DNA of 52,916 nucleotides from Clostridiales bacterium (GCA_031277225.1 JAITMQ010000003.1:1-52916); one strand, 5' to 3'; shown: positions 11,847-41,909, numbered from the stretch's first letter. The notes: generated by a model from the sequence alone, not told the origin. A program made the numbers and translations.

Positions 11847-12036
11847 ATTCCAAAATATCCCCGGGCTGGCAATTAAGCTCTTTGCACAGCCTCGCCAAAG
11901 TCGAAAATCTTATGGCCTTGCCCTTGCCGTTTTTCAGAATCGAAAGATTCGCCTGTGTTATATCCACACGCGCGGCAAGCTCTCCAAGCCCAATTTTGCG
12001 CCTTGCCATCATGACATCCAAATTTATTCTAATCAT
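11812..12036 (-). CDS. Small XRE/Cro-type HTH regulator (YozG-like)
   Basis: MIRINLDVMMARRKIGLGELAARVDITQANLSILKNGKGKAIRFSTLARLCKELNCQPGDILEY is the typical 70-aa YozG-type HTH. Confidence 0.88.
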   Translation of the reverse strand: MIRINLDVMMARRKIGLGELAARVDITQANLSILKNGKGKAIRFSTLARLCKELNCQPGDILEYVEGDGIHDNN

Positions 12037-12046
12037 GGCGCACCCC

Positions 12047-12505: not shown

Positions 12506-12517
12506 AATTCCTCCTTC

Positions 12518-12540
12518 GGGCGACCGAGGGCGGTCGCCCC
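12518..12540. repeat. Palindromic element GGGCGACCG-AGGG-CGGTCGCCCC (family A, copy 2)
   Basis: The same stem appears at 7338-7357 and 41112-41135. Here it sits between the minus-strand promoter and the RBS of the DUF2975-like gene. Confidence 0.9.
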
Positions 12541-12554
12541 TACGTTTTTTAACC

Positions 12555-12583
12555 ATTATACACCGGAATAAGTTGAATGTCAA
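12555..12583 (-). promoter_or_regulatory. Sigma-A-type promoter (TTGACA-17-TATAAT) for the DUF2975/HTH/membrane operon
   Basis: The minus strand reads TTGACA (12583-12578), a 17-nt spacer, then TATAAT (12560-12555). Confidence 0.65.
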
Positions 12584-12680
12584 TAACAAATTATCGAAAA
12601 ACAATAAATTTTTATCGTTGCCATATGGCGCGGCATATAAGCCACCCTCAGCCGCTACTTGCGGGTCGCAACAAATAATG

Positions 12681-12709
12681 TTGACAAACTTGGCAAATTA
12701 TGATAAATT
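12681..12709 (+). promoter_or_regulatory. Sigma-A-type promoter for the activase cluster
   Basis: TTGACA (12681-12686), a 17-nt spacer, then TAAATT (12704-12709) with a TGn extended -10. Confidence 0.55.
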
Positions 12710-13668: not shown

Positions 13669-14734
13669 GATTTCTTTTCCACATATGGGAAAATATTATA
13701 TTCCCATTAAAAAGGCCATGGAGGCATTTGTAGGCAATTATGGCGAGGTAATTTTGCCGCCGCCCATAACCAAGCGCACTATAGAGCTGGGCGCGCTTCA
13801 CAGCCCCGATTTCGTTTGTGTTCCTTTTAAATATACTTTGGGTAATTTTATTGAGGCGCTGGAAAATGGCGCAAATGTGTTGTTTCAAATTGCGGGGGAC
13901 TGCCGCCTGGGCTTTTATAGCGAGGTGCAGGAGCAAATTCTGCAAGACTTGGACTTTGACTTCACTTTCCATATGATGGAATTAAATGGCAAAAATGCGA
14001 AGGGACTGTATGAGGTCTTTAAGGCCATGAATCCCGAGCTTACGCTACCAAAAGTTGTGTCAACGCTGGCCGTGGTTGTGCGCATTGTCTATGCTATGGA
14101 CGGAATTGAGAAATACATACGCCAAAATATCGGCTTTGAGGTCGAAAAGGGCGGATTTGAGCGCATTGAGAAGCAATTTTTGGCGGAAATTGCCACGGCG
14201 GAAACCATGCCGCAGGCGGGTAGAATTTTCAAGAAATACCTTAAGAAACTTAAGACCGTGGCACTGAACAAGCCCGCAAAACCCCTTAGAGTCGGCGTTG
14301 TGGGCGAGCTTTATGTGTTGATGGAGCCTTTTTCGAATTATTTTATCGAGAAAGAGCTGGCAAAATTCGGAATCGAAGTCGAACGTTTTATAACCGCGTC
14401 CTATTTGATTTTCTCGACACAGCACAATGTTAAGAAAATTTTAAAACAGGCGGATGGTTATGTCAGCTATGAAATTGGCGCAGACGGCACGGACAGCGTG
14501 GCCAAAAGCGTTGTTATGGCCAAAAAGGGCTATGACGGAATCATTCATTTAAAGCCATTCGGCTGTACGCCGGAGGTTAATTCGATTCCCATGGTGAATA
14601 AAATTAGCGAGGATTTTGAAATCCCCGTATTATATTTCAGTTTCGACGCGCAAACGTCGGAAACGGGCGTAAAAACAAGGCTTGAGGCCTTTTATGATAT
14701 GTTGGAAATGAAGAAGAGGGGGCGGGCGTTATGA
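13658..14734 (+). CDS. Acyl-CoA dehydratase activase-related protein (DUF2229-type), subunit 2
   Basis: ATG 13658 follows AAGGAGG. Motifs are HSPDFVCVPFKYTLGNF, GDCRLGFY and KPFGCTPEVNS...FDAQTSETGVKTRLEAF. It overlaps the neighbouring genes by 11 nt upstream and 4 nt downstream. Confidence 0.78.
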   Translation: MQYRISFPHMGKYYIPIKKAMEAFVGNYGEVILPPPITKRTIELGALHSPDFVCVPFKYTLGNFIEALENGANVLFQIAGDCRLGFYSEVQEQILQDLDFDFTFHMMELNGKNAKGLYEVFKAMNPELTLPKVVSTLAVVVRIVYAMDGIEKYIRQNIGFEVEKGGFERIEKQFLAEIATAETMPQAGRIFKKYLKKLKTVALNKPAKPLRVGVVGELYVLMEPFSNYFIEKELAKFGIEVERFITASYLIFSTQHNVKKILKQADGYVSYEIGADGTDSVAKSVVMAKKGYDGIIHLKPFGCTPEVNSIPMVNKISEDFEIPVLYFSFDAQTSETGVKTRLEAFYDMLEMKKRGRAL

Positions 14735-15672
14735 AGGCCTATTTAGGCGTGGATATTGGCAGCATTTCAACGAAAGGCGTAATTATCGACGGCGATAATC
14801 GCATAATTGCAAATGAATATTTATGGACAGAAGGCAATCCAATTGCGGCCGTAAAAGGCGTGGTCGAGTCGCTTCAAAAGCAGATTGCCCCCGAAGTGCA
14901 GGTTATGGCCGTGGGCACGACGGGTTCTGCGCGCAAGCTTATCGGCGTTGTGCTTAATGCACAAATTGTTAAGAATGAAATAACCACTCATGCAATCGGA
15001 ACAATGAGTCGCGTTCCCGATGTTCGCACAATTTTAGAGATTGGCGGGCAGGATTCCAAAATTATCCTATTGCGCAACGGCATTGTTACGGACTATGCCA
15101 TGAATACGATTTGCGCGGCCGGCACGGGGTCTTTCTTAATGTCGCAGGCCAAGCGGCTGGGTCTGGCTATTGAGGAGCTGGGCGAAATGGCCCTGCAGTC
15201 CGAAAATCCGACAAGAATCGCCGCGCGTTGCACGGTTTTCGCGGAATCCGATTTGGTGCATAAGGCGCAAATTGGCCACAAAAAAGAGGATATTGTCGCG
15301 GGAATTTGCACAGCCGTTGTCAATAATTACCTAAACAATGTCGGCAAGGGCAAGCGCATACTCGCTCCCATCGTTTTCCAGGGCGGCGTAAGCAAAAATG
15401 TCGGCGTTGTGCGCGCTTTTGAGCAAATCCTCGGCCATGAAATTTATGTGGACGAATTCGGGCATCTCATGGGCTGCCTGGGTGCGGCCGTCCTCGCCAA
15501 AAACAGCGGCGTTGAGCAACTTTTCGACTTTAATATACAAGAAGTAGACTTCGTAACAAAAGGCCGCGAATGTGAGCTCTGCTCCAACAATTGCGAAATA
15601 ATCTATATCTATCGCAACAACGAAGTCCTCGACGCCTGGGGCAATCGCTGCGAGCGGGGGCTTTCGGCCTAA
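14731..15672 (+). CDS. BadF/BadG/BcrA/BcrD-type ATPase (2-hydroxyacyl-CoA dehydratase activase-like)
   Basis: LGVDIGSISTKGV, AVGTTGSARK and EIGGQDSKII match the family. The cluster-bridging Cys contexts NTICAAGTGSF and ARCTVFAESD are present. A C-terminal CxxCxxxC...C tail follows. Confidence 0.9.
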   Translation: MKAYLGVDIGSISTKGVIIDGDNRIIANEYLWTEGNPIAAVKGVVESLQKQIAPEVQVMAVGTTGSARKLIGVVLNAQIVKNEITTHAIGTMSRVPDVRTILEIGGQDSKIILLRNGIVTDYAMNTICAAGTGSFLMSQAKRLGLAIEELGEMALQSENPTRIAARCTVFAESDLVHKAQIGHKKEDIVAGICTAVVNNYLNNVGKGKRILAPIVFQGGVSKNVGVVRAFEQILGHEIYVDEFGHLMGCLGAAVLAKNSGVEQLFDFNIQEVDFVTKGRECELCSNNCEIIYIYRNNEVLDAWGNRCERGLSA

Positions 15673-15692
15673 TTGAATTGTTGGTGATATTT

Positions 15693-16622
15693 ATGCTTAA
15701 AAAAACGCAAAGCTTCACCTATATTGACTTATTTGCCGGCATCGGCGGTTTTCATCAGGCGGCCTCATCTTTGGGCGGCCTATGTGTGTTTGCAAGCGAA
15801 ATTGACACCGAGGCACAAAGGGCATATGAAGCAAATTATGCCATTAAACCGCATGGTGATATTACACAAATCTCCGCCGATGAAATACCCGACCACGATA
15901 TTTTGTTTGCGGGATTTCCTTGTCAGGCATTTAGTATTTGCGGAAATATGCGTGGTTTTGAGGATACGCGGGGAACGTTGTTTTTTGATATTGCGCGCAT
16001 TTTAAAGCAAAAAATGCCGCCAATGTTTATCCTTGAAAATGTAAAGCAATTGAGCACGCACGACAGAGGGCGAACCCTTAAGACAATTTTGGCAACACTT
16101 GAAGGGCTGGGATATAAAGTTTATTGGAAAATCCTTAATGCTTTAGATTTTGGCTTGCCGCAAAAACGAGAGCGAACGATAATTGTAGGTTTTTTAAACC
16201 ACAACGCAAACTTTGGCTTTCCGCAAACTATTGGCTCCGGGAAACTTGAGGATATACTTGAGAATGATTCCAGCATTGACCCCAAGTTTTTTGCGAGCGA
16301 GCATATAGTGGCTAAGCGCAGACGCAGCCATATTAGTAAACATAGCCCGGGCATTTGGCATGAAAATAAGGCGGGAAATATAACCAGTTATCCTTATTCC
16401 TGCGCCTTAAGGGCAGGAGCATCATATAACTATTTGCTTGTAAACGGAATTCGGAGGCCAACAATGCGTGAATTACTTAGGCTACAGGGCTTTCCGGATT
16501 CATTTAAAATAGTCTGCAACGACAGCCAAACCCGAAAGCAGGCAGGAAATGCCGTGCCTGTAAACATGATTAAGGCAGTATTAAAGGAGGCTTTATATGC
16601 AACGTCCGCGATTGCGCGATAA
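15693..16622 (+). CDS. DNA (cytosine-5)-methyltransferase (type II)
   Basis: Motif I DLFAGIGGF, motif IV GFPCQAFS, motif VI ENV, motif VIII QKRERTIIVGF, motif IX LRLQGFPDSF and motif X GNAVPVN. ATG 15693 was chosen over the ORF-track start at 15591. Confidence 0.93.
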   Translation: MLKKTQSFTYIDLFAGIGGFHQAASSLGGLCVFASEIDTEAQRAYEANYAIKPHGDITQISADEIPDHDILFAGFPCQAFSICGNMRGFEDTRGTLFFDIARILKQKMPPMFILENVKQLSTHDRGRTLKTILATLEGLGYKVYWKILNALDFGLPQKRERTIIVGFLNHNANFGFPQTIGSGKLEDILENDSSIDPKFFASEHIVAKRRRSHISKHSPGIWHENKAGNITSYPYSCALRAGASYNYLLVNGIRRPTMRELLRLQGFPDSFKIVCNDSQTRKQAGNAVPVNMIKAVLKEALYATSAIAR

Positions 16623-17325
16623 TAGGGGGCGCGGGCCATTTGAACTTTACCCGCTTGGCCAAATTCCCGCAGAAAATATTTACGAAATCGGAAAATGGTT
16701 CGTATATCGATATTCGGTGGGCAATAAAGATATAAACGGGAGTGAATGGGGAGATATTTTTGCAAATGGCATTAATGGAGAACATTTAAGCAGCCCACTA
16801 GGCCTTGCCGATGTGGTGCACGAAAATATGGCATGGTCTACAAAAACCGTTAAACACAATAATCCACATAGCCAGCAAAAGGTCAGGGTTATTTCCGGAC
16901 GATGCTCTCCCGACTATTCATATGGCATAACAGACCCCCACGAAGACATACAAAAAACCGGAACCGCCGTACTGTCCATTTATAATGAGCGCATAAATAT
17001 CGCCAAAGACCGCTTCGAGCCTTTGCGCGCAATAATTCTTATTCGTAACTTTGAAAGATTTGAATTTGTTTTATTTGAAGATGATGTACATAGATATGTA
17101 ACCTCGGAATATAGATGGCGCAAAAACAGCAATGGCAATTTACAAGGCCATGATTCGGCAGGCAGGCATTGTTTTACGTGGCAACCCCACGGTTCGCAAT
17201 TTACGGTTTTATACGATGTGCCGTCATCGGCAATTAAATTCACGGTAAAACAGCCCCCTGTGCTGGATTTTGATAAAACTCTTATGCAAATTGGATTTGA
17301 TGAAAGCTGGATAAAAATTTTATAG
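16597..17325 (+). CDS. Putative type II restriction endonuclease (cognate of the C5-MTase)
   Basis: ATG 16597 follows AAGGAGG and overlaps the MTase 3' end by 26 nt. The size (242 aa) and position fit a REase. No family was recognised, and only a weak PD...(S/T)xK-like stretch was seen (LADVVHENMAWSTK). Confidence 0.5.
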   Translation: MQRPRLRDNRGRGPFELYPLGQIPAENIYEIGKWFVYRYSVGNKDINGSEWGDIFANGINGEHLSSPLGLADVVHENMAWSTKTVKHNNPHSQQKVRVISGRCSPDYSYGITDPHEDIQKTGTAVLSIYNERINIAKDRFEPLRAIILIRNFERFEFVLFEDDVHRYVTSEYRWRKNSNGNLQGHDSAGRHCFTWQPHGSQFTVLYDVPSSAIKFTVKQPPVLDFDKTLMQIGFDESWIKIL

Positions 17326-20916: not shown

Positions 20917-20934
20917 TGGGCGGTGGTGGATAAT

Positions 20935-21369
20935 ATGAAAGTGTATTTGGATAATTGCTGCTTCAACAGACCATTTGATGACCAAAGTGCCTTGATTGTC
21001 AGACTTGAAACGGAGGCCGTGTTGCTGATTCAGCAGTTAATTAGGGATGGAAAGCTTAAGCTTGTGTGGTCTTTTATGATTGATTATGAAAATGCAGCCA
21101 ACCCTTTTATTGAAAAACGTAGCAGAGTAAATGCTTGGAGAAGCATGGCGGACGAGAATATTCAACATTCATTTCATATCGCAAAGAAAGCTGCCGAATG
21201 TATGTATTTGGGATTCCGAGAAAAGGATGCCGTCCACATAGCTTGCGCGTTTGACGCAAAAGCCGATTATTTTATAACAACCGACAAAAAAATACTCAAC
21301 AAATCTGTAGATGGTGTCGAATTTTTGAATCCAATCGAATTTTTGAGGAGGTATGACGATGTTAAGTGA
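20935..21369 (+). CDS. PIN-domain protein (putative toxin/RNase)
   Basis: MKVYLDNCCFNRPFDDQS...VWSFMIDYEN...KDAVHIACA...YFITTDKKIL supplies the acidic PIN residues (D6, E, D, TTD). It starts 18 nt after the pheS stop. Confidence 0.78.
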   Translation: MKVYLDNCCFNRPFDDQSALIVRLETEAVLLIQQLIRDGKLKLVWSFMIDYENAANPFIEKRSRVNAWRSMADENIQHSFHIAKKAAECMYLGFREKDAVHIACAFDAKADYFITTDKKILNKSVDGVEFLNPIEFLRRYDDVK

Positions 21370-21568
21370 TACTTTATTACAGCGAGAGGGCATGAGGGTT
21401 TTGGCCGAAAATTTGGGTCTGGTTGAGGCGGGGCGATTTATTGCTCTTATGAATAGAGAGCCTTTTGATTATACCAAATGGCAGCATGGCTTATTTGCGG
21501 ATTTATCCCTTGAAGAGCTTCTTGCGCGGGCAAATCAATATCAAATTGAAAATTTTGGGAGGTCATGA
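21353..21568 (+). CDS. 71-aa protein, putative partner (antitoxin?) of the PIN protein
   Basis: It overlaps the PIN 3' end by 17 nt. Its TGA (21566-21568) overlaps the pheT ATG(s) at 21565/21568. No family was recognised. Confidence 0.5.
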   Translation: MTMLSDTLLQREGMRVLAENLGLVEAGRFIALMNREPFDYTKWQHGLFADLSLEELLARANQYQIENFGRS

Positions 21569-23968: not shown

Positions 23969-24247
23969 ATGACCAAAACCAGCATGACTTTAGACATTGA
24001 CTCCGATTTGAAAGAGCAAACCGAGGAATTGCTTCAAGATATGGGGCTGGACATGTCCACGGCCGTAACCCTTTTTGCGAAGGCCGTGGTGCGGCAGCAA
24101 CGAATTCCTTTTGAAGTTGTGGCAAGTAATCGAGCTTATTATGATTTTAACAGAAAAAAAGCCCTTGAGCCTGACAGCATGGCCGGCAAAATTTGGATTG
24201 CGGATGATTTTGACGCACCTTTGGATGAATTTAAGGAGTATATGTGA
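23969..24247 (+). CDS. RelB/DinJ-type antitoxin with a Phd/DUF2281-like C-terminal tail
   Basis: TLDIDSDLKEQTEELLQDMGLDMSTAVTLFAKAVVRQQRIPFEV matches DinJ. The C-terminal GKIWIADDFDAPLDEF is typical of VapB-type tails. Confidence 0.8.
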   Translation: MTKTSMTLDIDSDLKEQTEELLQDMGLDMSTAVTLFAKAVVRQQRIPFEVVASNRAYYDFNRKKALEPDSMAGKIWIADDFDAPLDEFKEYM

Positions 24248-24627
24248 TGAAAATACTTTTGGACACCCATATCGTGTTGTGGATTCTTAGTAGCAGCAAG
24301 AGGCTTTCGCAATCAACCATCCACATAATTTCAGAAAAAAAGAATCAAAAATTCATCAGTTTGGCGGCCGTATGGGAGTTGGCCATCAAAATAAATCGTG
24401 GAAAAATGGCCTTTGAGGGCGGCATCACAGGATTTCTTAATTTGATACAGGAAAGCGACATTGAAATATTGCATATAACTCCGCCGCATATTGAATATCT
24501 GGAAAAGTTACCGCCTATCCACCAAGACCCTTTTGACAGAATAATGGTGGCGCAGGCCATGTTTGAAGGCATGTTTTTTGCAACGGTGGATAGTAATGTA
24601 AAGAAATATGATATTATGCACATTTGA
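24247..24627 (+). CDS. vapC: VapC-family PIN toxin
   Basis: MKILLDTHIVLW...SLAAVWELAIK...QDPFDRIMVAQA. It shares a TGATG stop/start overlap with the antitoxin. Confidence 0.88.
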   Translation: MKILLDTHIVLWILSSSKRLSQSTIHIISEKKNQKFISLAAVWELAIKINRGKMAFEGGITGFLNLIQESDIEILHITPPHIEYLEKLPPIHQDPFDRIMVAQAMFEGMFFATVDSNVKKYDIMHI

Positions 24628-24633
24628 TACGGA

Positions 24634-24666
24634 AGTTGGGGGCGTGTGGTTTACACGCCCCCAACT
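24634..24666. terminator. 14-bp-stem hairpin between convergent vapC and the oxidoreductase gamma gene
   Basis: AGTTGGGGGCGTGT-ggttt-ACACGCCCCCAACT. There is no clear U-tract on either strand. Confidence 0.6.
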
Positions 24667-24668
24667 TA

Positions 24669-25205
24669 TCATCCCAGACTTTCCAACCCCTTTTTAATCG
24701 AGGCCATATTCATATCCACCAACTCCTGCCGCCCTTTAAAACGGCGCAGCAGCGCGGCTTCTATATCTTCCGGCGTAAAAAGTTCGGTTTGGGTTAAAAA
24801 GCCTGCCAGCATGGTCATATTCGCGCCGCGAGGATTGCCTGTGGCCGTAGCAATATTTGAAGCGTCAATGGCTATAATTGTAACATCATCTCTTTCGACA
24901 GGTTCTGTAACTATCGACGAATTTATGAAGATTATTCCACCCGAACGAACTTTATCAAGAAATTTCGTTACCGAAGGGCCGTTTAGGGCGCAAAGGATGT
25001 CAATATCCCCTAAAACTATGGGGCTGCCGATTACATTATCGGAAATTATAACCGAGCAATTCGCCGTGCCGCCGCGCATTTCCGCGCCATAGGACGGCAT
25101 CCACGTAACCTCTTTTTCCCGCGCAAGCGCAATATCGGCCACAACCTGCCCCAGCGTCAACACGCCCTGCCCTCCAAATCCCGAAAAAATCATCTTTGTA
25201 GTCAT
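24669..25205 (-). CDS. 2-oxoacid:ferredoxin oxidoreductase, gamma subunit
   Basis: MIFSGFGGQGVLTLGQV...SYGAEMRGGTANC is the typical gamma-subunit N-terminus. Confidence 0.9.
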   Translation of the reverse strand: MTTKMIFSGFGGQGVLTLGQVVADIALAREKEVTWMPSYGAEMRGGTANCSVIISDNVIGSPIVLGDIDILCALNGPSVTKFLDKVRSGGIIFINSSIVTEPVERDDVTIIAIDASNIATATGNPRGANMTMLAGFLTQTELFTPEDIEAALLRRFKGRQELVDMNMASIKKGLESLG

Positions 25206-25948
25206 TGCGCCTCACCCCCGTCTCTATAGACACCCAGCGGATAATATGGCAGCATATCGCTTGCCACAAATTTCATTGCATCCACGGGCTTTTTCGCCCA
25301 ACCAATCGGGCAGGTTGACAAAACCTCGACCATGGAGAAGCCGCAGCCGTCAATTTGGTTTTGAAAGGCCTTTTTAATGGCCTTTTTGGTTTGGTTAATA
25401 TGCCTTATATCGTGAATTGACGTGCGCTCGATATAAGTAACCGACGGAATTTGCGCAAGCATTTCACTCATGCGGATTGGGCGGCCCGTTGTCGGTTCGG
25501 CGCGGCCTTGCGGGCTGGTTGAGGTTTTCATGTCGATAAGCGTTGTCGGTGCCATTTGCCCGCCCGTCATGCCATAAATGGCATTATTTACAAAAATAAC
25601 GGTGATATTTTCGCCGCGATGCGCGGCATGAACAATTTCCGCCGTGCCAATGGCCGCCAAATCGCCATCGCCTTGATATGTAAAGACGATTTTGTCGGGA
25701 TTTGTGCGTTTTGCACCCGTGGCCACGGCGGGCGCGCGCCCATGCCCTGCCTGAATCCCGTCGCAATTAAAATATTCATAGGCCAAAACCGCACAGCCCA
25801 CGGGCGCAATTGTAATTGTGCGCTCTAAAATATCAAGCTCTACCAAATTTTCGGCAATAAGCTTGTGAACGATTCCATGCCCGCATCCCGGGCAATAGGA
25901 CAACGGAATATCCGTCAGCCCCCTTGTTTTTTCATATGTCCTAGCCAT
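25202..25948 (-). CDS. 2-oxoacid:ferredoxin oxidoreductase, beta (TPP-binding) subunit
   Basis: YCPGCGHG and GDGDLAAIG...NNAIYGMTGGQ form the TPP motif. ATG 25948 lies 10 nt after GGAGGAT. The ORF-track start at 26044 was rejected. Confidence 0.92.
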   Translation of the reverse strand: MARTYEKTRGLTDIPLSYCPGCGHGIVHKLIAENLVELDILERTITIAPVGCAVLAYEYFNCDGIQAGHGRAPAVATGAKRTNPDKIVFTYQGDGDLAAIGTAEIVHAAHRGENITVIFVNNAIYGMTGGQMAPTTLIDMKTSTSPQGRAEPTTGRPIRMSEMLAQIPSVTYIERTSIHDIRHINQTKKAIKKAFQNQIDGCGFSMVEVLSTCPIGWAKKPVDAMKFVASDMLPYYPLGVYRDGGEAQ

Positions 25949-26123
25949 TTTTATCATATCCTCCCACTTCAGGCATGGCCTTGCAATAAATATCATCAAG
26001 CACCACGCAAATTTCCTCATGTGCGCAACGTTGCATTTCCCCATAAAACGTAATAAACATCTCCATCTGTCCCTTGGTCATTGTGTCAATAATAGCATAA
26101 CATCTTTCTTGTAAAGTCATCAT
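25941..26123 (-). CDS. 60-aa hypothetical protein, third gene of the relE cassette
   Basis: ATG 26123 follows GAGGTGA. The 3' end overlaps the beta-subunit start by 8 nt. It begins MMTLQERCYAIIDTMTKGQMEMF. No family was recognised. Confidence 0.4.
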   Translation of the reverse strand: MMTLQERCYAIIDTMTKGQMEMFITFYGEMQRCAHEEICVVLDDIYCKAMPEVGGYDKNG

Positions 26124-26142
26124 ATCACCTCGGTATCTTTCG

Positions 26143-26388
26143 CTATTTCCTATATGCGTCGCCTCTATTGTCGATTTCCACAACCAAAATGCCATAATCT
26201 TGGTATACCCAAACGATTCGCCAACCTCCGACACGAAGACGAAACTTCCCCTTGAAGCCTGTCAAAGGCACATTATCCCCTTGCGGCAACTTAAAAATTG
26301 CTTTTGCAAGCCTTGATTTTTGCTTTAATGGCAAGCGGTCGAGGAATTTTTCTACGCTTTTATGCAATTCAATCTTCATCTTCGTCAT
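26143..26388 (-). CDS. relE: RelE/ParE-family toxin
   Basis: KIELHKSVEKFLDRLPLKQKSRLAKAIFKL...LTGFKGKFRLRVGGWRIVWVYQDYGILVVEIDNRGDAY is the canonical RelE/StbE pattern. Confidence 0.85.
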   Translation of the reverse strand: MTKMKIELHKSVEKFLDRLPLKQKSRLAKAIFKLPQGDNVPLTGFKGKFRLRVGGWRIVWVYQDYGILVVEIDNRGDAYRK

Positions 26389-26608
26389 CTCCCGCCTCTA
26401 AGTCTATGCCCCATTTCGCGGCATAATCTTCAACGGAAATACCTCGCTCATATTTGTCGGGCCGTTTTTCGTGCCTGGCAAGCATGGAAAGGCAAAAAGC
26501 CATGTCAAGCCTGTCTTCCGACTCCATGTCTGCGAGTTTGCGCTCTAAAAATTTGTCTGCAGGTATTAAAGCCTGCGGAGCTTTGATAAGCATTACGCCA
26601 CTTTCCAT
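26369..26608 (-). CDS. Putative antitoxin (acidic C-terminus) upstream of relE
   Basis: It overlaps relE by 20 nt. ATG 26608 overlaps the alpha-subunit TGA as TGATG. It has an acidic tail, GDDEDED. Confidence 0.55.
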   Translation of the reverse strand: MESGVMLIKAPQALIPADKFLERKLADMESEDRLDMAFCLSMLARHEKRPDKYERGISVEDYAAKWGIDLEAGDDEDED

Positions 26609-27657
26609 CAAATCACCTCAATAACTTTTTCTGCGATTTCTTCCGGCTCAAAAATCATTCCCCCGGTGCGGCCGTAGAAATGCACGGGGATTTTGCCCGC
26701 CACGCCAAGCCTTACATCTTCCACCATTTGACCCATGCTAAGCTCGCAAACCACGACATTTTTCACAGAAGCGGGCAAATTTTGGAAACTTTCGTATGGG
26801 AAGGGCCAAAGCGTAATCGGCCGAACAAGCCCCGCCTTAATCCCCTTAGACTTTAGGATTTCAATTGAATTCAAAACTATACGCGCAGGCGTGCCATAAG
26901 CCACCAAAGCAACTTCGTCGCCGTCCGTAACGCGATTGTCGACCATAATCTCCTTCGCCCGAATGATTTCATAGGTAGCAAAACGCCGCAAATTCATCTC
27001 TTCCAATGCTTCAGCCTTAAGACTAAGCGAATTAGCAATATTCCGCCGCCCACGCCCACTATCGCCATTAGCCGCCCAACACTTCTCATTATTCATTATT
27101 AATTCTTCATTATTAATTGGCAAAACCGGCTCCATCATCTGCCCAAGCATCCCATCCGCCAGCACCATAACCGGTGTGCGATAAAGGTCAGCCACATTGA
27201 AGGCCTTATAGACCAAATCCATGGCTTCCTGTATGCTAAACGGCGCGTAAACGGGCAAATAATAGTCGCCATTGCCGCCGCCTCTTGTGGCCTGAAAATA
27301 GTCGCCTTGCGCGGGCAAAATTCCGCCAAGGCCCGGCCCTGCGCGCGACACGGAAACGATGACGCAGGGCAAATCCGCCCCCGCCATATATGAAATGCCC
27401 TCTTGTTTAAGCGCGATTCCGGGGCTGGAGGACGAAGTCATTGTCCGCACGCCCGTGGCCGCCGCGCCATAGGCCATATTAACGGCCGCAACCTCGCTTT
27501 CGGCCTGCACAAAAACCCCGCCGACCGCCGGCATTTTGGTTACCATATACTCAACAATTTCATTTTGCGGCGTTATGGGATAGCCGAAAAACGCCCGACA
27601 ACCCGCGGCAATGGCCGCCGCCGCAATGGCCTCATTGCCCTTCATTAAAATTTTCAT
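26608..27657 (-). CDS. 2-oxoacid:ferredoxin oxidoreductase, alpha subunit
   Basis: MKGNEAIAAAAIAAGCRAFFGYPITPQNEI...QAESEVAAVNMAYGAAATGVR is the typical POR/KOR/VOR alpha-subunit pattern. Confidence 0.92.
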   Translation of the reverse strand: MKILMKGNEAIAAAAIAAGCRAFFGYPITPQNEIVEYMVTKMPAVGGVFVQAESEVAAVNMAYGAAATGVRTMTSSSSPGIALKQEGISYMAGADLPCVIVSVSRAGPGLGGILPAQGDYFQATRGGGNGDYYLPVYAPFSIQEAMDLVYKAFNVADLYRTPVMVLADGMLGQMMEPVLPINNEELIMNNEKCWAANGDSGRGRRNIANSLSLKAEALEEMNLRRFATYEIIRAKEIMVDNRVTDGDEVALVAYGTPARIVLNSIEILKSKGIKAGLVRPITLWPFPYESFQNLPASVKNVVVCELSMGQMVEDVRLGVAGKIPVHFYGRTGGMIFEPEEIAEKVIEVI

Positions 27658-27707
27658 GAATTATCACCCTCTGTAATTTCTTTATTTGATGCCTTTTCCT
27701 GCGAAGA

Positions 27708-27914
27708 TTAAGCCGCCTTTTTGACAGCGATAACAGAATCCGGGCAAATCCAATTGCAAACCCCACAGGAGATGCATTTGTCCGCATCGGTGCAGACCAT
27801 GGGATTATAACCCTTCGCATTTACACGCGTGGCGTCAAGGTGCAGGATTTTTTTGGGGCAGACCCAAGCGCAAAGGTCGCAGCCCTTGCATAAATCTTCG
27901 TTAAAAATAACCAT
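27708..27914 (-). CDS. 4Fe-4S dicluster ferredoxin (delta subunit)
   Basis: Two CxxCxxCxxxCP motifs are present: CKGCDLCAWVCP and CISCGVCNWICP. Confidence 0.9.
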   Translation of the reverse strand: MVIFNEDLCKGCDLCAWVCPKKILHLDATRVNAKGYNPMVCTDADKCISCGVCNWICPDSVIAVKKAA

Positions 27915-27927
27915 AATCTCACTCTCC

Positions 27928-28578
27928 TTATTGCCAATCTTCCCTCATTTGCAACTTGCTAAATGTCAAAACTTCTTCCGATTGTATTTCATTGCCAATT
28001 TGCGCATAAATATCCTCACGAACCAGAGTATACCGCAGCGGCAGCCCCAAGGACAATATCGCCTCCTGCGAGGCCAACACATGTTCTGCCGTGGTTTCAT
28101 GCAGCATATGGCCGTTATTCACCAATCCCGTCAGCGGAATTTGGGTTTGCATATTGATAGACCGCAGATATTCCGCCATTTTCGCCGCAGAAGCGGTTTC
28201 CGGGCGAAATAGATTGAGGACACACAAAAATTCATAGGCAGGCGCGCTTAAAATTGCATCATAGCAAGACGCAAGTAGGCGTAGACCTATATGGCCGCCA
28301 CCTAGGTCAATTATTACATTTTCACCCGCGCGCACCTTGGACAAAAAGGCAAAACTTGCGGCGGGCAGGTCTTGCCCCGTATTCCCCTGCAAATGGTCGC
28401 TCATTAGGGTAATCCCGCGGGAGGCCAGCCGCGTGGCCGCCTCCCGCGAGCGGAAGTAGGGGTTGATTACGTCTAAGTCGGCTATAGATATTGCGCCTTG
28501 CTTCGCAAGAGCTAAGGCAAGGTTTACGCTAAATTCCGTCTTTCCGCTTCCGAAATAGCCCGTGATAATATGGGTCAT
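27928..28578 (-). CDS. P-loop NTPase, conserved hypothetical
   Basis: ATG 28578 lies 1 nt after the dehydrogenase stop. A Walker A motif is present (GYFGSGKTEF). Confidence 0.7.
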   Translation of the reverse strand: MTHIITGYFGSGKTEFSVNLALALAKQGAISIADLDVINPYFRSREAATRLASRGITLMSDHLQGNTGQDLPAASFAFLSKVRAGENVIIDLGGGHIGLRLLASCYDAILSAPAYEFLCVLNLFRPETASAAKMAEYLRSINMQTQIPLTGLVNNGHMLHETTAEHVLASQEAILSLGLPLRYTLVREDIYAQIGNEIQSEEVLTFSKLQMREDWQ

Positions 28579-28579
28579 A

Positions 28580-29665
28580 TTAAGCCTTAGTCCAAATGGA
28601 CTTAATTGTGCGCACGGCCTCAAGACGGTCTTCAGCCAGCCTGTCCGCCACTTCATAGGTCAAACGACCCGATTCGTCCGAAATCTTTAAAATATCGCGC
28701 ATTCTGTAATAAATGCCGTCAATATCGCGAAGCGCGGCCTCTTCATTATAGCCGAATTCGGCGCGCTCGTAAGAAACATTAATAACCCCGCCCGCATTTG
28801 CCAAATAGTCGGGCGCGTAAATTATGCCGCGCTCTTGCAAAGCCTTGCCGTGAATGGCGGGCTTGTGCAGCTGATTATTCGCGCCGCCGCAAACAATTTT
28901 GGATTTAAGTAGCGGAATTGTGGAGTCATTTATAGTTGAACCCAAAGCGCATGGCGCGTAAATATCACATTCCACGCTGTAAATATCGTCGGGCGCAACA
29001 ACTTCCGCGCCAAATTCTTCAACCGCCCTGTCAAGATTCGCTTGATTAACATCGGCAATAATCAGCTTTGCGCCGTCTTCATGCAAAAGCTTACAAAGAT
29101 GATAACCCACATTGCCCACGCCTTGAACGGCAATAACCTTGCCTTCAACCGACCTGTCGCCATAGACATGTCTGCAACAGGCCAAAATCGACTTAAACAC
29201 GCCGCGCGCGGTATAAGGCGAGGGGTCGCCGCTGCGTCCGGGAAGGCCTACAACATGGTTTGTTTCCATGTGAATATAGACCATGTCCTGCGTCGTTGTG
29301 CCGACGTCCTCGGCGGTGATATATCTGCCGCCAAGCCCTTCAAGATAACGCCCGAAGGCGCGCCAAAATGCCTCGCGCTTGATTGGGTCTTTGCGCAAAA
29401 CCTTGGGGTCGCCGATAATTACGCTTTTGCCGCCGCCAAGGGCCAGACCCGCCAGCGCAGACTTATAAGTCATGCCGCGCGCAAGGCGAAGCGCGTCTTC
29501 AACGGCCGCCTCCTCGTCCTCATAAACCCAAAAACGACTTCCGCCTAAGGCCGGGCCCAAAACGGTGTTGTGAATGGCCGTAATGGCCTTAAGCCCCGTT
29601 GACTTGTCCTGAAAAAAGCAAAGCTGTTCAAAGCCATACCTCTCCATATAACCGAATTTGTCCAT
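28580..29665 (-). CDS. Leucine (branched-chain amino acid) dehydrogenase, Glu/Leu/Phe/Val dehydrogenase family
   Basis: [10 protein letters not shown]...[22 protein letters not shown] contains the catalytic Lys motif. A Rossmann motif follows (VQGVGNVG). Confidence 0.9.
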
Positions 29666-29749
29666 AAAATCTCCTCCTAAAATTAGTTATTGTTTATATT
29701 CTGTTCATTGATACCCGGCGGAAAGTTCTTTTCGCCTTGATTCTATATA

Positions 29750-30106
29750 CTAGAGTGCGAATTCGACGAGATAGCTGTCGCCGACGGTTTGGCCGCCTAT
29801 TGTAACCGTGCCGAGAGAATAAGTGCTTGTGCCGAAGGGCGCGCGGCAATGTATGACATTTTGGTTGTCGATATTCGTGAAGGTAAAGCCATGGCGGCCT
29901 GTGGTGGGCGGTCTGTCCGCTTCCAAATAAATGCCATGCGTTCCGTCTTCATGAAAATGCACAATGTCGCCGCTTGTAAGGCTTGCGCGCTCCGTCCCGA
30001 CTATATCCCTAATAAAATCAACGACAAAAAACGCCCCAAACCCAACAGTTCCCAAAAGCAAAACGCCCGCAAGAATCGCCAATAATAATAAATTCTTCCC
30101 CTTCAT
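29750..30106 (-). CDS. Membrane-anchored hypothetical protein (118 aa)
   Basis: N-terminal TM segment LLLLAILAGVLLLGTVGFGAFFVV. No family was recognised. Confidence 0.5.
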   Translation of the reverse strand: MKGKNLLLLAILAGVLLLGTVGFGAFFVVDFIRDIVGTERASLTSGDIVHFHEDGTHGIYLEADRPPTTGRHGFTFTNIDNQNVIHCRAPFGTSTYSLGTVTIGGQTVGDSYLVEFAL

Positions 30107-30172
30107 GAAAGCCTCCTAACTCATTTATTTCTGCAAGGTCTGCTCTCGCTCCTGCCGAATAAATTATTTTAT

Positions 30173-30361
30173 TCATGGAGATAACCCCAGGCTTTTCTTA
30201 ACCTCATCAGCCGTAAACCAACCATGCTCCTCGCCGCTTTTTCTGCCCTTTTCAAGTTCTGCCATAAGCCATGCAATGGCTCGCTCTCTATCATGCTCCC
30301 CAACGCTTAGTGCGGCATAATCGCGATTTTTCAAGCCGGGCATACTTTTTGTTGTTGTCAT
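30173..30361 (-). CDS. 62-aa antitoxin-like orphan ORF
   Basis: The C-terminal ELEKGRKSGEEHGWFTADEVKKSLGL resembles the tails of RHH/ParD-type antitoxins. No adjacent toxin gene is present. Confidence 0.4.
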   Translation of the reverse strand: MTTTKSMPGLKNRDYAALSVGEHDRERAIAWLMAELEKGRKSGEEHGWFTADEVKKSLGLSP

Positions 30362-30397
30362 TTAATCAACTCCTCAATTGAAGTAAGTTTTTGTCTT

Positions 30398-31474
30398 TTA
30401 CTCATCGGCCAAACCCTCATAGATTTTGGCTTCCTCCTCACCGCGCAACACACGCAGCGCGCCGCCTGCGAGGGCCGCCAGCTCATCCTCGCCGGGATAG
30501 ATATGCACGGGGGCTATAAAGCTTATTCTGCGGGCAACTTCGTCGGTTATGGGTTTTGCGCGGGCAATGCCGCCGGTTAGCAGAATGGCCTCAACCTGCC
30601 CCGCCGCCGAGGCGGCCATGGTCGCAATTTCTTTGGCAATTTGCAGGGCCATGGCTTCCATTACAAGCTTCACTTCGGGCTCATTTTTGGCGCGGTTTTC
30701 AATGTCAAGCATGGAATTTGTGCCAAAATAGGCCGCCATGCCGCCTTTACCAACCAACATGGCCTTCACCTCGTCATGGCTATAATCGCCGCTAAAGCAT
30801 AACGCCGCCAAATCGCCCGCGGGCAGGCCGCCGCTGCGCTCCGGCGTGAAGGGGCCGCAGCCGCCAAGAGCGTTATTTGTGTCAATTGCGCGGCCATTTG
30901 AGTGCAGAGCAACGGAAATTCCGCCGCCCATATGCACAACAATTAAATTCACCTCATTGTATTTTTTGCCGCGCTCTGCGCAATATTTGCGGGCGGTTGC
31001 CTTATGGTTCAGCGCGTGAAAAACCGAGCGGCGCGCAAGTTTCGGATGGCCGCTTATGCGGAAAATGTCCTCCATTTCGTCAACCACCACGGGGTCAACA
31101 ATATAGGCCGGAATTGAGGCGGCGTCGGCCAAAGCACGCGCTATAAGGCCGCCCAAATTCGAGGCGTGTTCGCCGTATTTGCCGGATTTTAAATCCGCTA
31201 CCATGGTGTCATTCACCAAATATGTTCCGCCGTCTAAGGGGGCCAAAAGGCCGCCCATGCCTACGACGGAAGAAAGTTCTTCCGGCTTGATGCCGCGATT
31301 TTCTAATTCCTTCGCGATAATTTGCATACGAAAATCGTATTGATTGGCGACCGCGCCAAAGGGGGCGAGTTCTGACATTTCATGCCGCAAAGTATGCTCA
31401 AAAACCAGGGCCTCGCCGTCATAAAGCCCCATCTTAGTAGATGTAGAACCGGGATTAACAATCAAAATCTTCAT
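30398..31474 (-). CDS. buk: Butyrate (branched-chain fatty acid) kinase
   Basis: MKILIVNPGSTSTK and VHMGGGISV, in the acetate/butyrate kinase family. An RBS AAGGAGA precedes the start. Confidence 0.95.
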   Translation of the reverse strand: MKILIVNPGSTSTKMGLYDGEALVFEHTLRHEMSELAPFGAVANQYDFRMQIIAKELENRGIKPEELSSVVGMGGLLAPLDGGTYLVNDTMVADLKSGKYGEHASNLGGLIARALADAASIPAYIVDPVVVDEMEDIFRISGHPKLARRSVFHALNHKATARKYCAERGKKYNEVNLIVVHMGGGISVALHSNGRAIDTNNALGGCGPFTPERSGGLPAGDLAALCFSGDYSHDEVKAMLVGKGGMAAYFGTNSMLDIENRAKNEPEVKLVMEAMALQIAKEIATMAASAAGQVEAILLTGGIARAKPITDEVARRISFIAPVHIYPGEDELAALAGGALRVLRGEEEAKIYEGLADE

Positions 31475-31488
31475 AAATTCTCCTTTAT

Positions 31489-31737
31489 CTAGGCTATCGC
31501 CATTTCGCGCACAGGCACTTGAGAATGCATTTCTTCTTCTCTTTTGGCCTCACAAAAATCAATCCAGCTTTCAACAGCTCTTGCAAAATCTGCTTTCAAT
31601 TCGCCCAAGCTTGTTCCGTCGTACATAAATAGGCCGTGAATGCCTAATATTTCGCCGTGCAAAAGGTCGTCGGGTGCAGAATATTCAACCGAACCGTAAA
31701 AACCTTTGTATTCCAAGCAGCTATCTTTGTCAATCAT
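31489..31737 (-). CDS. hicB: HicB-family antitoxin-like protein, copy 2
   Basis: CLEYKGFYGSVEYSAPDDLLHGEILGIHGLFMYDGTSLGELKADFARAVESWIDFC. It is a paralog of 31765..32013 at a 276-nt period. No C-terminal DNA-binding domain is present. Confidence 0.78.
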   Translation of the reverse strand: MIDKDSCLEYKGFYGSVEYSAPDDLLHGEILGIHGLFMYDGTSLGELKADFARAVESWIDFCEAKREEEMHSQVPVREMAIA

Positions 31738-31764
31738 ATTTAACCCCCCTAAAACAACACGAAC

Positions 31765-32013
31765 TTAGGCTATCGCCATTTCGCGCACAGGGGCGTGGGA
31801 TTGCATTTCTTCTTCCCTCTCGGCCTCGCAAAAATCAAGCCAACGCTCAACTGTATCTGCGAATTCTTTTTTTAGTTCGTCCAAGGACGTGCCGTCATAC
31901 ATAAACAATCCGTGAATGTCTAAGATTTTGCCATATAGCAAGTCATCGGGTGCGGAATATGCAACCGAACCGTAAAAGCCCCTATACTCTAAGCATCTGT
32001 CTTTGTCAATCAT
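31765..32013 (-). CDS. hicB: HicB-family antitoxin-like protein, copy 1
   Basis: Same pattern as copy 2. It shares an ATGA start/stop overlap with hicA. Confidence 0.8.
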   Translation of the reverse strand: MIDKDRCLEYRGFYGSVAYSAPDDLLYGKILDIHGLFMYDGTSLDELKKEFADTVERWLDFCEAEREEEMQSHAPVREMAIA

Positions 32014-32270
32014 ATTAAACCCTCGCTTTCCAGAATCATTAAAATTTCATCAATTTGATACCTGAGCAGCACTTTGCTCCTACCATGAGGCCTATGCAAT
32101 TCTATAGGTCTTGCCCCTCCTTCACGCTTATATGCAAGTTTAGAGCCGCTTGTTCTGCCTTTGTTAAAGCGTCTGTAACCCAGCGACAAAATCAAAGTTT
32201 CAATCTCGCTTAAAGTCATGTCTTTAGGTCTGGACTTCAGTCTGCTAATAAGCTTCTGCCTTTTACTCAT
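32010..32270 (-). CDS. hicA: HicA-family toxin (YcfA-like mRNA interferase)
   Basis: LSEIETLILSLGYRRFNKGRTSGSKLAYKR...IELHRPHGRSKVLLRYQIDEILMILE. ATG 32270 lies 13 nt after the ptb stop. Confidence 0.8.
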   Translation of the reverse strand: MSKRQKLISRLKSRPKDMTLSEIETLILSLGYRRFNKGRTSGSKLAYKREGGARPIELHRPHGRSKVLLRYQIDEILMILESEGLI

Positions 32271-32283
32271 AGATTGAACCCCC

Positions 32284-33189
32284 CTAAAACAAAACCGACA
32301 GCGCAATCGAAATCAGCTTACTTTCCGCCGAATCTGCGCGGGAGGTCAGGATTATCGGGCGTTTTGCGCCCAAAACCACGCCGCCGTTTTTTGCCTTAGT
32401 AATGAAGGACAGCGATTTATAGAGGATATTGCCCGCCTCGATATTGGGGCAGAACAGAATGTCGGCATCCCCGCCAACGGGCGAATTTATGCCCTTAATT
32501 TCGCAGGCCTCAACCGACACGGCATTATCCAAAGCCAGCGGCCCGTCGACAATGCAATTTTGCATCCTTTCGCCGGACTTGTGCAGGGCCACAATTTGGG
32601 CATATTCCTGCGTTATGGGCATTTTGTCGTCAACTTTTTCCTTGGCGGCCAAAAGCGCGACTTTAGGGAGATTTATGCCCATATTCCGCAGGGCATCCAC
32701 GGTATTTTCAATAATGTCAATTTTTGTATCAAAGTCGGGGGCGATATTTACGGCGCAGTCTGCGGCAAATAGCAGTTTATGGTAATTTGGCGTTTCAAAA
32801 ACCGCCACATGGCTTAGCTTTTTGCCGGCACGAATCCCCGTTTCACGGCATAAAACGGCCCTCATTATTGTGGAAGTTTCCGTGTCGCCTTTCATTAAAG
32901 CCGTGGCGCGCCCGGACTTAACAAGCTCTACAGCCGCCTGACAAGCCGCGAATTCATCGGCTTCGTCCACAATTTCAAAATTGTCAATATTAATATTCAT
33001 TTCCTTCGCCAGGGCAAAAATTTTGCTTGCATCGCCCACCAAAATCATGGACGCAATGCCCTGTCCGACGGCCTCCGCAGCCATTTCCAAAATATGGGCG
33101 GAATCCGCCGCAGCCACAGCCACCGTAGACTTTTTTTCCTTTGCCAACCGAAAAACCTCATCAAAATTTTTGATAATATCACCCCTCAA
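32284..33189 (-). CDS. ptb: Phosphate butyryltransferase
   Basis: FDEVFRLAKEKKSTVAVAAADSAHILE...LVGD...MKGDTETS belongs to the phosphate acetyl/butyryl transferase family. The start codon appears to be non-ATG (TTG 33189), so the start is uncertain. Confidence 0.9.
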   Translation of the reverse strand: MRGDIIKNFDEVFRLAKEKKSTVAVAAADSAHILEMAAEAVGQGIASMILVGDASKIFALAKEMNINIDNFEIVDEADEFAACQAAVELVKSGRATALMKGDTETSTIMRAVLCRETGIRAGKKLSHVAVFETPNYHKLLFAADCAVNIAPDFDTKIDIIENTVDALRNMGINLPKVALLAAKEKVDDKMPITQEYAQIVALHKSGERMQNCIVDGPLALDNAVSVEACEIKGINSPVGGDADILFCPNIEAGNILYKSLSFITKAKNGGVVLGAKRPIILTSRADSAESKLISIALSVLF

Positions 33190-33234
33190 CTTTTGTATAT
33201 CTTAGTATATCACAAGGTTTTGCTTTGCACAAGA

Positions 33235-41173: not shown

Positions 41174-41440
41174 ATGACATTGACGAGGATTAACGAAAGT
41201 ACCGAAATTACGGTAAATCAGGCGCGGAGAATGTATCCGGACAAATATATTTTCATGATAATTGACAAGCAAGTGGACTTTTCCGGCAATAATATCGGGC
41301 GTGTGATTTTTATTATGGATTCTAAGGAAGAAATTTACAATGTGGATATGGCGGAATTCGCTGGGCGTACAAAAAAAATTGTAGAAGGAATCGAAATTCT
41401 TAGAAGGCCGAGTATAGGGGGAATCAGCATTGAAGCATAG
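41174..41440 (+). CDS. 88-aa hypothetical protein, first gene of the retropepsin module (DUF5678-like?)
   Basis: ATG 41174 follows AGGAGG. It overlaps the protease gene by 11 nt. The resemblance to small partners of archaeal/cyanobacterial clan AA proteases is from memory only. Confidence 0.5.
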   Translation: MTLTRINESTEITVNQARRMYPDKYIFMIIDKQVDFSGNNIGRVIFIMDSKEEIYNVDMAEFAGRTKKIVEGIEILRRPSIGGISIEA

Positions 41441-41909
41441 CATAAAGCTGGAAGCAGGCAAGATAATTGTGCCTATGAATATCCAAGATGCCAATTTAAA
41501 AGACATGTCCGAGGTTGACTTTAAAGTGGACACTGGTTCGGATTATACAACGATTTCAAAAAAAGAATTGTATACGCTGGGATATTCCGCAGATTGGATT
41601 AAGCAAAATGCCATAAGAAACGACAGGGATGCCAAAACAGCCGACGGCAGCACAATTCCCATTTATTTTTTACAAATACCGAAAATGAATATATTGGGAA
41701 CCGAGGTTTCCAATATGCGCTTACATATTTTATTGGATGGCGATGGCGGGGCGGCAAGGGACTTAAACAATCTTTTGGGGCTGGATTTATTGCTGTCTTT
41801 CAATTATATGGTCAACAATGACGAGGATGAATTCATCATCCACAGAACAACAAAACCAAGCAAAACAAAGACTATTTACCCGGAAGTGCAACTATTTAAT
41901 CTTGATTAG
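41430..41909 (+). CDS. Retropepsin-like (clan AA) aspartic protease, cytoplasmic
   Basis: A single catalytic FKVDTGSDYTTIS (hh-D-T-G-S) and a downstream LLGLDLL (hhGxD) motif. No signal peptide. The size (159 aa) implies a homodimeric protease. Confidence 0.75.
   Translation: MKHSIKLEAGKIIVPMNIQDANLKDMSEVDFKVDTGSDYTTISKKELYTLGYSADWIKQNAIRNDRDAKTADGSTIPIYFLQIPKMNILGTEVSNMRLHILLDGDGGAARDLNNLLGLDLLLSFNYMVNNDEDEFIIHRTTKPSKTKTIYPEVQLFNLD

Follow-up and report, generated by a model that had tools for sequence, protein, structure and literature searches.

How do the genes of toxin-antitoxin (TA) modules, which when of type II are generally portrayed as two-gene operons of accessory DNA that are autonomous and regulate themselves, come to lie between the enzyme genes of a metabolic operon, and what would keep them there? 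The question is raised by a stretch of 52,916 nt from a Clostridiales bacterium (GCA_031277225.1, JAITMQ010000003.1:1-52916; hereafter the window), in which a minus-strand operon at 24669-33189 has the gene order ptb-[hicA-hicB1-hicB2]-buk-[anti62]-membrane gene-ldh-P-loop-vorD-vorA-[anti80-relE-orf60]-vorB-vorG, genes of TA origin being bracketed. It seems probable to us that these are selfish type II TA cassettes that ride on the transcription of the host operon, are kept by addiction and slowly decay; co-transcription, toxin activity and addiction-based persistence are the parts of this explanation that we infer.

Toxin-antitoxin genes at the operon junctions

Three genes lie between ptb and buk, on the minus strand like all operon genes discussed below. 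The toxin gene hicA (32010-32270) starts 13 nt past the ptb stop codon behind the Shine-Dalgarno sequence GGGGGG; hicB1 (31765-32013), the ATG of which overlaps the hicA stop codon (ATGA), encodes the HicB N-terminal domain only; and hicB2 (31489-31737), a second HicB copy, ends 14 nt short of buk, the gaps along ptb/hicA/hicB1/hicB2/buk being 13, -4, 27 and 14 nt. These identities, proposed in a first-pass annotation of the window, are borne out by matches of hicA to PHROG 8887 ('toxin', 1.3e-10) and of hicB1 and hicB2 to PHROG 9151 (HicB-like, 1.1e-14 and 1e-14), and by an identity of 41-45% over the full length of hicA to plasmid genes annotated as HicA family toxin (tblastn 1e-13). The window HicA stays below the Pfam HicA_toxin cut-off (17.1 bits vs 27), which a homologue in locus L012 passes with 39.8 bits, and PDB sequence searches with hicA and hicB1 gave nothing significant. 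A single-sequence AlphaFold2 model of HicA (pLDDT 80.6) was searched with Foldseek, and the top four PDB matches were all HicA structures (5yrz_B, 6g26_E, 6g26_F and 4c26), with weak E-values (0.07-0.4) and, for 5yrz_B, a probability of 0.99 and a TMt of 0.70. On this model, the window HicA is predicted to have the dsRBD-like HicA fold.

The toxin-binding N-terminal domain of HicB (HicB/UPF0150-like) is present and encoded directly 3' of hicA, and both HicB copies (82 aa) stop before the PF05534 DNA-binding region (alignment A3); neither has a Pfam HicB match. For comparison we used canonical HicAB modules, namely plasmid copies in Leptospira (L093) and Ligilactobacillus (L092) and a chromosomal copy in L012, the HicA proteins of which are 41-48% identical to that of the window. 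The window cassette shares with them the toxin gene in first place, the stop/start overlap and a homologous HicB N-terminal domain. Unlike the two window proteins, however, their HicB partners are 111-118 aa long and carry the PF05534 region at residues ~55-106, and the plasmid modules L092 and L093 have an upstream spacer of 600-765 nt, as opposed to the 13 nt of the window hicA.

The two hicB genes are 78% identical at the nucleotide level, with a dS of 1.33 and a dN/dS of 0.09, values that indicate strong purifying selection on both copies. Given this dS, either the duplication is old or the copies were acquired separately. The sequence TTGTTTTAGGGGGGTT before hicB2 is a copy of the last four ptb codons and Shine-Dalgarno sequence (an exact 16-mer, repeat D2), and at the second occupied junction the GAGGTGATnTGATG motif of the vorA end recurs ahead of orf60. 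Such junction repeats would fit a tandem duplication of junction and cassette after which the second toxin was lost; as the repeats overlap ribosome-binding sites, they may also be kept by functional constraint.

That second junction, between vorA and vorB, is occupied by anti80 (26369-26608), a diverged antitoxin-family member with an ATG overlapping the vorA stop codon (TGATG), by relE (26143-26388), a RelE/ParE-superfamily toxin gene overlapping anti80 by 20 nt, and by orf60 (25941-26123), within which lie the vorB Shine-Dalgarno sequence and the first 8 nt of vorB. The gaps along vorA/anti80/relE/orf60/vorB are -1, -20, 19 and -8 nt. Among 1.84 billion representative proteins searched exhaustively with HMMER, anti80 has only two relatives, P0003 (7e-10) and P0005 (9e-5), and the gene for each lies directly upstream of a RelE homologue; together with the match of relE to PHROG 1213 (RelE-like, 5e-11), this argues for a RelE toxin and an upstream antitoxin at this junction. 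The cassette had been described as antitoxin-relE-60aa, and this holds for the TA genes, but the 60-aa ORF turns out to be a truncated second antitoxin copy (the N-terminal two-thirds), matching P0005 residues 1-57 (blastp 2e-10; alignments A1 and A4). As orf60 is of the same family as anti80, relE is flanked by two partial antitoxin paralogues.

Word-indexed homologue searches with anti80 and relE returned the query alone. In termite-gut metagenome contigs L084 and L087, relE has homologues that are 60-63% identical, and an antitoxin-toxin pairing like that of anti80 and relE is found in L084, L087, L089, L091 and L094. Against Pfam ParE_toxin, the window RelE scores 17.2 bits (cut-off 23), the L084 homologue 22.4 bits and the L091 homologue 31.1 bits, the last of these passing the cut-off. 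A PDB sequence search with RelE gave only aRelE 1wmi, at a non-significant E-value of 0.34. Its AlphaFold2 model is of low confidence (pLDDT 51.8), with a helix-helix-then-four-strand order compatible with RelE/ParE; the fold search was uninformative and was disregarded. The antitoxin family of anti80 has no match in Pfam, NCBIfam, PHROG or PDB, family-profile search included; it is a rare, unannotated family with only a handful of members, seen only in operon-embedded positions. Like RelBE and ParDE modules, the cassette has a small antitoxin gene overlapping a downstream gene for a RelE/ParE-superfamily toxin; unlike them, it draws its antitoxin from an unannotated family and has its toxin gene between two partial antitoxin paralogues.

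At the third junction, between buk and ldh, the first-pass annotation saw a foreign pair, an antitoxin-like and a membrane ORF, of which the former is indeed antitoxin-derived but the latter is native. The 62-aa ORF, anti62 (30173-30361), is a Phd/YefM-type antitoxin gene decayed by an internal deletion of ~27 aa in its core. Its product is 57% identical over 71% of its length to P0007/P0008 (89 aa, PF02604), which have a ParE_toxin gene adjoining, the alignment with P0007 being limited to the C-terminal ~44 residues. Membership of anti62 in the anti80 family was considered and rejected, the sequences being unrelated. On one side of anti62, overlapping the buk stop codon, is a hicA 5' remnant of 15 codons, MSKRQKLTSIEELIK and a stop (30358-30405; direct repeat D6), which is identical to the first seven hicA codons at 18/21 nt. 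On the other side, in ATGA overlap with the anti62 stop, is a stretch of ~19 codons beginning MNKIIYSAGARADLAEINE (30120-30176), after which the frame breaks down and the sequence passes, out of frame, into the membrane gene; compared by eye with the L086 ParE, the stretch is a probable ParE/RelE start remnant. With an antitoxin domain that is no longer intact and a downstream toxin gene reduced to ~19 codons, the junction between buk and the membrane gene looks like a cluster of decayed TA remnants.

The membrane-protein gene (29750-30106) has a host-like GC3 of 0.555 and homologues of 178-226 aa between buk and ldh in 7 relatives (L001-L006 and L009). The window version is truncated to 118 aa, having lost its C-terminal third (~70-100 residues), a transmembrane part included; the protein, two-TM and conserved in the operon, has no Pfam family. 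With gaps of 36, 66 and 84 nt, the 62-aa ORF and the membrane ORF are more widely spaced than the genes at the other two junctions, as had been remarked. All three junctions had also been called normally tight, and those between ptb and buk and between vorA and vorB are short in several relatives; since the membrane gene is native, the buk-ldh junction is not normally tight in the closest relatives.

Host operon, relatives and expression

The host genes form the coherent pathway operon that was proposed for them. They are ptb, phosphate butyryltransferase (32284-33189, start codon uncertain; Pfam PTA_PTB 3.4e-50); buk, butyrate kinase (30398-31474; NCBIfam TIGR02707 2.8e-149); ldh, Leu/Val dehydrogenase (28580-29665; Pfam ELFV_dehydrog_N and ELFV_dehydrog); a P-loop protein gene (~27928-28578); and the delta, alpha, beta and gamma subunits of a 2-oxoacid:ferredoxin oxidoreductase, vorD (27708-27914; Pfam Fer4), vorA (26608-27657; POR_N and PFOR_II), vorB (25202-25948; TPP_enzyme_C) and vorG (24669-25205; POR). 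The P-loop protein has weak family matches, none above threshold in Pfam or NCBIfam, but the closest relatives keep it in the operon, its gene lying between ldh and vorD in L001-L007 and L009 (57-62% identity, tblastn). A divergent polA beside ptb is likewise kept with the operon in relatives.

The Bacillus subtilis bkd operon has the order ptb-bcd-buk-lpdV-bkdAA-bkdAB-bkdB. As in that operon, ptb, a Leu/Val dehydrogenase gene and buk are found beside a 2-oxoacid-oxidising enzyme in the window, an order kept in at least 12 related loci, and the window dehydrogenase is 57-61% identical to Bacillaceae homologues. Unlike the bkd operon, that of the window uses a four-subunit ferredoxin oxidoreductase rather than a dehydrogenase complex, and has extra conserved membrane and P-loop proteins. 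The closest relatives of the dehydrogenase, 71-81% identical, come from Defluviitaleaceae metagenome-assembled genomes (MAGs) of higher-termite guts (sample codes per PMC7024585). The operon serves the anaerobic fermentation of branched-chain amino acids in a termite-gut Defluviitaleaceae-like bacterium, and ptb to vorG would be carried on one transcript.

For a comparison of synteny, 16 related operon loci were collected by a dehydrogenase scan. The spacing between ptb and buk is 13-31 nt in L003, L004, L008 and L012, and vorA overlaps vorB in L001 and L003, most other loci having 14-35 nt between the two. Searches with tblastx and blastn found no homologue of relE, anti80, orf60 or anti62 in the 16 loci. 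The only related sequence there is in L002, which holds 760 nt between vorA and vorB (11946-12706) with a remnant of the C-terminal half of an antitoxin-family member just before vorB (first spotted by eye; blastp 8e-12 against P0005) and other ORF fragments alongside. The cassettes are thus missing from the same junctions in nearly all relatives and are not universal components of the pathway. They also differ in composition, the mean GC3 being 0.446 for cassette genes (range 0.39-0.51) vs 0.557 for host genes (0.50-0.60), two sets that barely overlap. The low GC3 and the family matches to HicA, HicB, RelE and Phd/YefM uphold the earlier view of these genes as foreign and TA-derived, and the comparison as a whole supports reading the cassettes as lineage-specific, compositionally foreign insertions in an otherwise conserved operon.

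Other co-oriented cargo occupies these junctions in relatives, including a GNAT acetyltransferase, SAM methyltransferases, an APH-like kinase with a cupin, a NUDIX hydrolase, a DUF1622 protein, a broken glycosyltransferase and a ~1000-aa transglutaminase/InlB-repeat protein. In L004 (11095-11324), the vorA-vorB junction holds a 48-aa DUF4177-like ORF.

A chimeric assembly or binning error could in principle have joined the cassettes to the operon, as the contig evidently stems from a metagenome and its cassettes are unlike the host genes in composition. However, an independent Logan assembly (SRR14710899) repeats the gene order of the two cassette regions and is 99.87% and 100% identical to them, with all five differences from the window falling in host genes, so that the arrangement cannot be the product of one faulty assembly. 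As reading frames and start/stop overlaps are moreover seamless on both sides, and analogous embedded modules occur in several unrelated contigs, an artefact is barely conceivable.

How would these insertions be expressed? The two TA cassettes between ptb and buk and between vorA and vorB had been said to leave no intergenic room for a promoter or terminator, and this is confirmed by the gaps (-20 to 27 nt) and gene overlaps; upstream spacers of 13 nt (hicA) and -1 nt (anti80) leave no place for a promoter and operator of their own. Between 23.5 and 34 kb, promoter-like matches are at chance level (17 vs 14.4±3.8 in shuffled sequence) and terminator-like matches are not above it (23 vs 15.3±4.2), none of either kind being located at a cassette boundary. 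For translation, there is either a Shine-Dalgarno sequence or an overlap of stop and start codons at every cassette gene. A candidate promoter for the whole operon, read from the sequence and under the threshold of the scanner, may lie at 33204-33232 (minus strand; TTGTGC, 17-nt spacer, extended -10 TGaTATACT), ~15 nt upstream of the ptb ribosome-binding site. At the other end, a perfect 15-bp GC-rich hairpin with a 5-nt loop (24633-24667; inverted repeat I6) lies between the convergent ends of the vor operon and of the pheST-TA unit described below; no U-tract follows it on either strand, and it likely ends both transcription units. The lack of regulatory space, along with HicB proteins that have no DNA-binding domain, makes read-through from the host-operon promoter the simplest way in which the cassettes would be transcribed.

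The scenario that we favour would then run as follows. Horizontally acquired type II TA cassettes have landed in permissive operon junctions, where they would be tolerated because they are co-oriented, bring no terminator and leave the host operon unbroken. They would be transcribed by read-through from the operon promoter and translated from their own Shine-Dalgarno sites or by stop/start coupling, and loss of an intact TA pair would be penalised by addiction, making for persistence. Over time, antitoxins would be duplicated, toxins lost and the cassettes would decay; extra antitoxin copies, truncated antitoxins and lost toxins are a recurring pattern here.

Several observations weigh against this scenario. 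The 3' parts of ptb or vorA, where there are sub-threshold or chance-level matches, could contain promoters, and the loss of the DNA-binding domain is established for the HicB copies only, not for anti80 or orf60. Toxin activity is deduced from sequence, and the window HicA and RelE both score below the Pfam gathering cut-offs. The purifying selection on HicB would fit a domesticated host function equally well as addiction. Finally, the vorA-vorB junction has been used by the same antitoxin family in the window and in L002, and this may reflect a site preference rather than chance insertion sieved by selection.

Cassettes in other operons and rival explanations

The fermentation operon is not the only one affected. 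The genes pheS and pheT are universally adjacent, yet in the window they flank a gene for a 148-aa PIN-domain protein and a 71-aa ORF, orf71, that overlaps it (20923-21568, plus strand), with gaps along pheS/PIN/orf71/pheT of 6, -17 and -4 nt and a cassette GC3 of 0.39-0.42. The identity of pheS is confirmed by Pfam, and the PIN gene matches plasmid genes annotated as PIN domain-containing protein (tblastn 4e-21). For orf71 we found no plasmid homologue, no match to the small ORF beside a Butyrivibrio PIN homologue and no known family; we assume from its position alone that it is an antitoxin gene. A RelB/DinJ-type antitoxin gene and a PIN toxin gene (23969-24627, plus strand; TIGR02384 1.7e-16 and Pfam PIN 2.1e-13) start 16 nt past pheT in the same orientation and extend to the hairpin at which the vor operon also ends; the antitoxin has a VapB/DUF2281-like C-terminus.

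Modules related to anti80-relE are similarly placed elsewhere: between grpE and dnaK in L087; between oppB-like and oppC-like permease genes in L089; 13 nt past ddl and overlapping the next gene in L084/L085; past an ACT-domain gene in the asd-dapA-dapB cluster of L091; and overlapping the start of a dnaX-like gene in L094. When the window and the L002 remnant are included, all RelE-module loci (7/7) abut or overlap conserved genes. In L091 (1019-1570), a DUF4160/DUF2442 pair is also found between asd and dapA, with gaps of 8, 9 and 17 nt. The embedding thus appears to belong to the cassettes and the lineage, not to the branched-chain amino-acid pathway. Separately, in an Oscillospiraceae termite MAG (L015, 4056-4412), a PIN gene (Pfam 1.3e-12) lies ~250 nt upstream of P-loop-vorDABG-ldh on the same strand.

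This distribution bears directly on the suggestion, made when the window was first annotated, that the cassettes stabilise the operon or tie growth arrest to branched-chain amino-acid flux, toxin and antitoxin being made in proportion to operon transcription. Such a pathway-specific domestication would be in keeping with the occupation of three junctions of one operon, with the strong purifying selection on both HicB copies and with an expression that is probably tied to the operon promoter. It fares badly, however, in the face of like embedding at pheST and in unrelated housekeeping clusters (grpE-dnaK, opp, ddl, dap and dnaX), of the many relatives (most of them) that run the same operon cassette-free, of the decay of one of the three sites and of the unrelated cargo at the same junctions in other relatives, and we regard it as highly improbable.

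Could the position of the cassettes instead reflect a dedicated, integron-like mobilisation that puts promoterless cassettes at junctions of stop codons and Shine-Dalgarno sequences? The exact 16-mer of ptb end and Shine-Dalgarno sequence before hicB2, the motif repeated before orf60, the resemblance of the cargo of relatives (GNAT, methyltransferases, APH-like kinase, NUDIX, cupin) to integron cassette content, and the fact that all seven RelE-module loci abut housekeeping genes would all speak for it. Yet no repeat, whether direct or an attC-like inverted one, is common to the cassette boundaries of different loci, the gaps could not accommodate a recombination site, the gene map has no obvious integrase near the cassettes (no integrase-specific search was made), the short repeats could be kept by function as ribosome-binding sites, and a selection filter on random insertions would explain the co-orientation. 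Targeting of this kind seems very unlikely. Integron gene cassettes in the strict sense were considered and rejected, there being no attC-like boundary repeats and the spacers (14-27 nt) being too short.

A role in defence is also unlikely, if somewhat less easily dismissed: anti-phage or abortive-infection TA genes placed in constitutive operons would have their toxin freed when a phage shuts off host transcription. Dependence on host transcription would make the antitoxin supply sensitive to such a shut-off, there is other defence-like cargo in the window (a methylase gene with an adjoining ORF of no known family at 15591-17325 and a weak PDC-M08B match at 41430-41909), and the matches of HicA, HicB and RelE to PHROG families mean that relatives circulate in phages. 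On the other hand, no TA protein of the window matches any PADLOC model, and the decayed locus and truncated antitoxins suggest weak selection. Defence would in any case be compatible with the selfish reading.

A more tentative alternative, doubtful though possible, is that we are dealing with a TA class specialised for the housekeeping operons of termite-gut Clostridia, without promoter, operator or antitoxin DNA-binding domain and dependent on host transcription and on coupled translation. Cassettes of such a class may be delivered preferentially to junctions of stop codon and ribosome-binding site. If the class is real, its type example would be the RelE module and the unannotated antitoxin family that goes with it, and toxin release would be a direct read-out of host transcription.

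Comparison with known systems and neighbouring genes

The selfish-cassette scenario has partial precedents. In E. coli, relA-mazEF is one TA pair linked to a host operon. In S. aureus and Listeria, mazEF lies upstream of and is co-transcribed with rsbUVW-sigB, by read-through past a weak terminator (PMC4885055). The window cassettes share with mazEF the physical and, as their sequence context suggests, transcriptional linkage of a type II TA pair to a host operon. However, mazEF sits at the edge of its host operon, has its own promoter and is conserved genus-wide, whereas the window cassettes lie between enzyme genes, are separated from the preceding host gene by at most 13 nt, occupy several junctions, are lineage-specific and are in part decayed. 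The TA cassettes of integrons and superintegrons are small and co-oriented, depend on an external promoter and have been proposed to stabilise neighbouring DNA. Those of the window resemble them as small, co-oriented, embedded cassettes that would be transcribed from an outside promoter, but are single insertions in housekeeping operons rather than arrays, with no attC-like sites or integron platform seen.

The HicAB, RelE/ParE, Phd/YefM and PIN families are all known already, as are single cases of co-transcription of TA genes with a host operon. What differs here is the presence of TA genes between subunit genes and at several junctions of one operon, the lineage-wide recurrence of this arrangement, the duplicated HicB without a DNA-binding domain and the unannotated, operon-embedded antitoxin family. 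In the literature searched, the coverage of which was incomplete, we came across no account of operon junctions being invaded by TA genes in these bacteria.

If the cassettes are expressed as their anatomy suggests, the stoichiometry of toxin and antitoxin would be set only by translation and proteolysis, the supply of antitoxin would come under the transcriptional control of the host operon, and essential or metabolic operons could be long-term havens, and later resting places, for selfish cassettes. The locus would then be a natural setting in which to test how TA modules behave when conditional cooperativity is lacking, and it adds a small new antitoxin family. It also calls for caution in annotation, as small ORFs that lie within operons in gut Clostridia may represent TA genes, or what is left of them, rather than pathway components.

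A T-box leader is usual upstream of pheS in Firmicutes; in the 52.9-kb window, the region upstream of pheS included, no Rfam family reaches its gathering score. Two further pairs of genes were noted in the window, both on the plus strand. At 15591-17325, a C-5 cytosine DNA methylase gene (Dcm; Pfam 2.3e-87) and a 242-aa ORF without family match, possibly its restriction partner, are appended by overlaps to a DUF2229/HGD-D/BcrAD_BadFG activase cluster (12739-15672). At 41174-41909, between floA and a 674-aa gene, an 88-aa ORF overlaps the gene for a 159-aa retropepsin-like aspartyl protease (41430-41909), which has a weak PADLOC match (1.2e-4) to the candidate defence system PDC-M08B.

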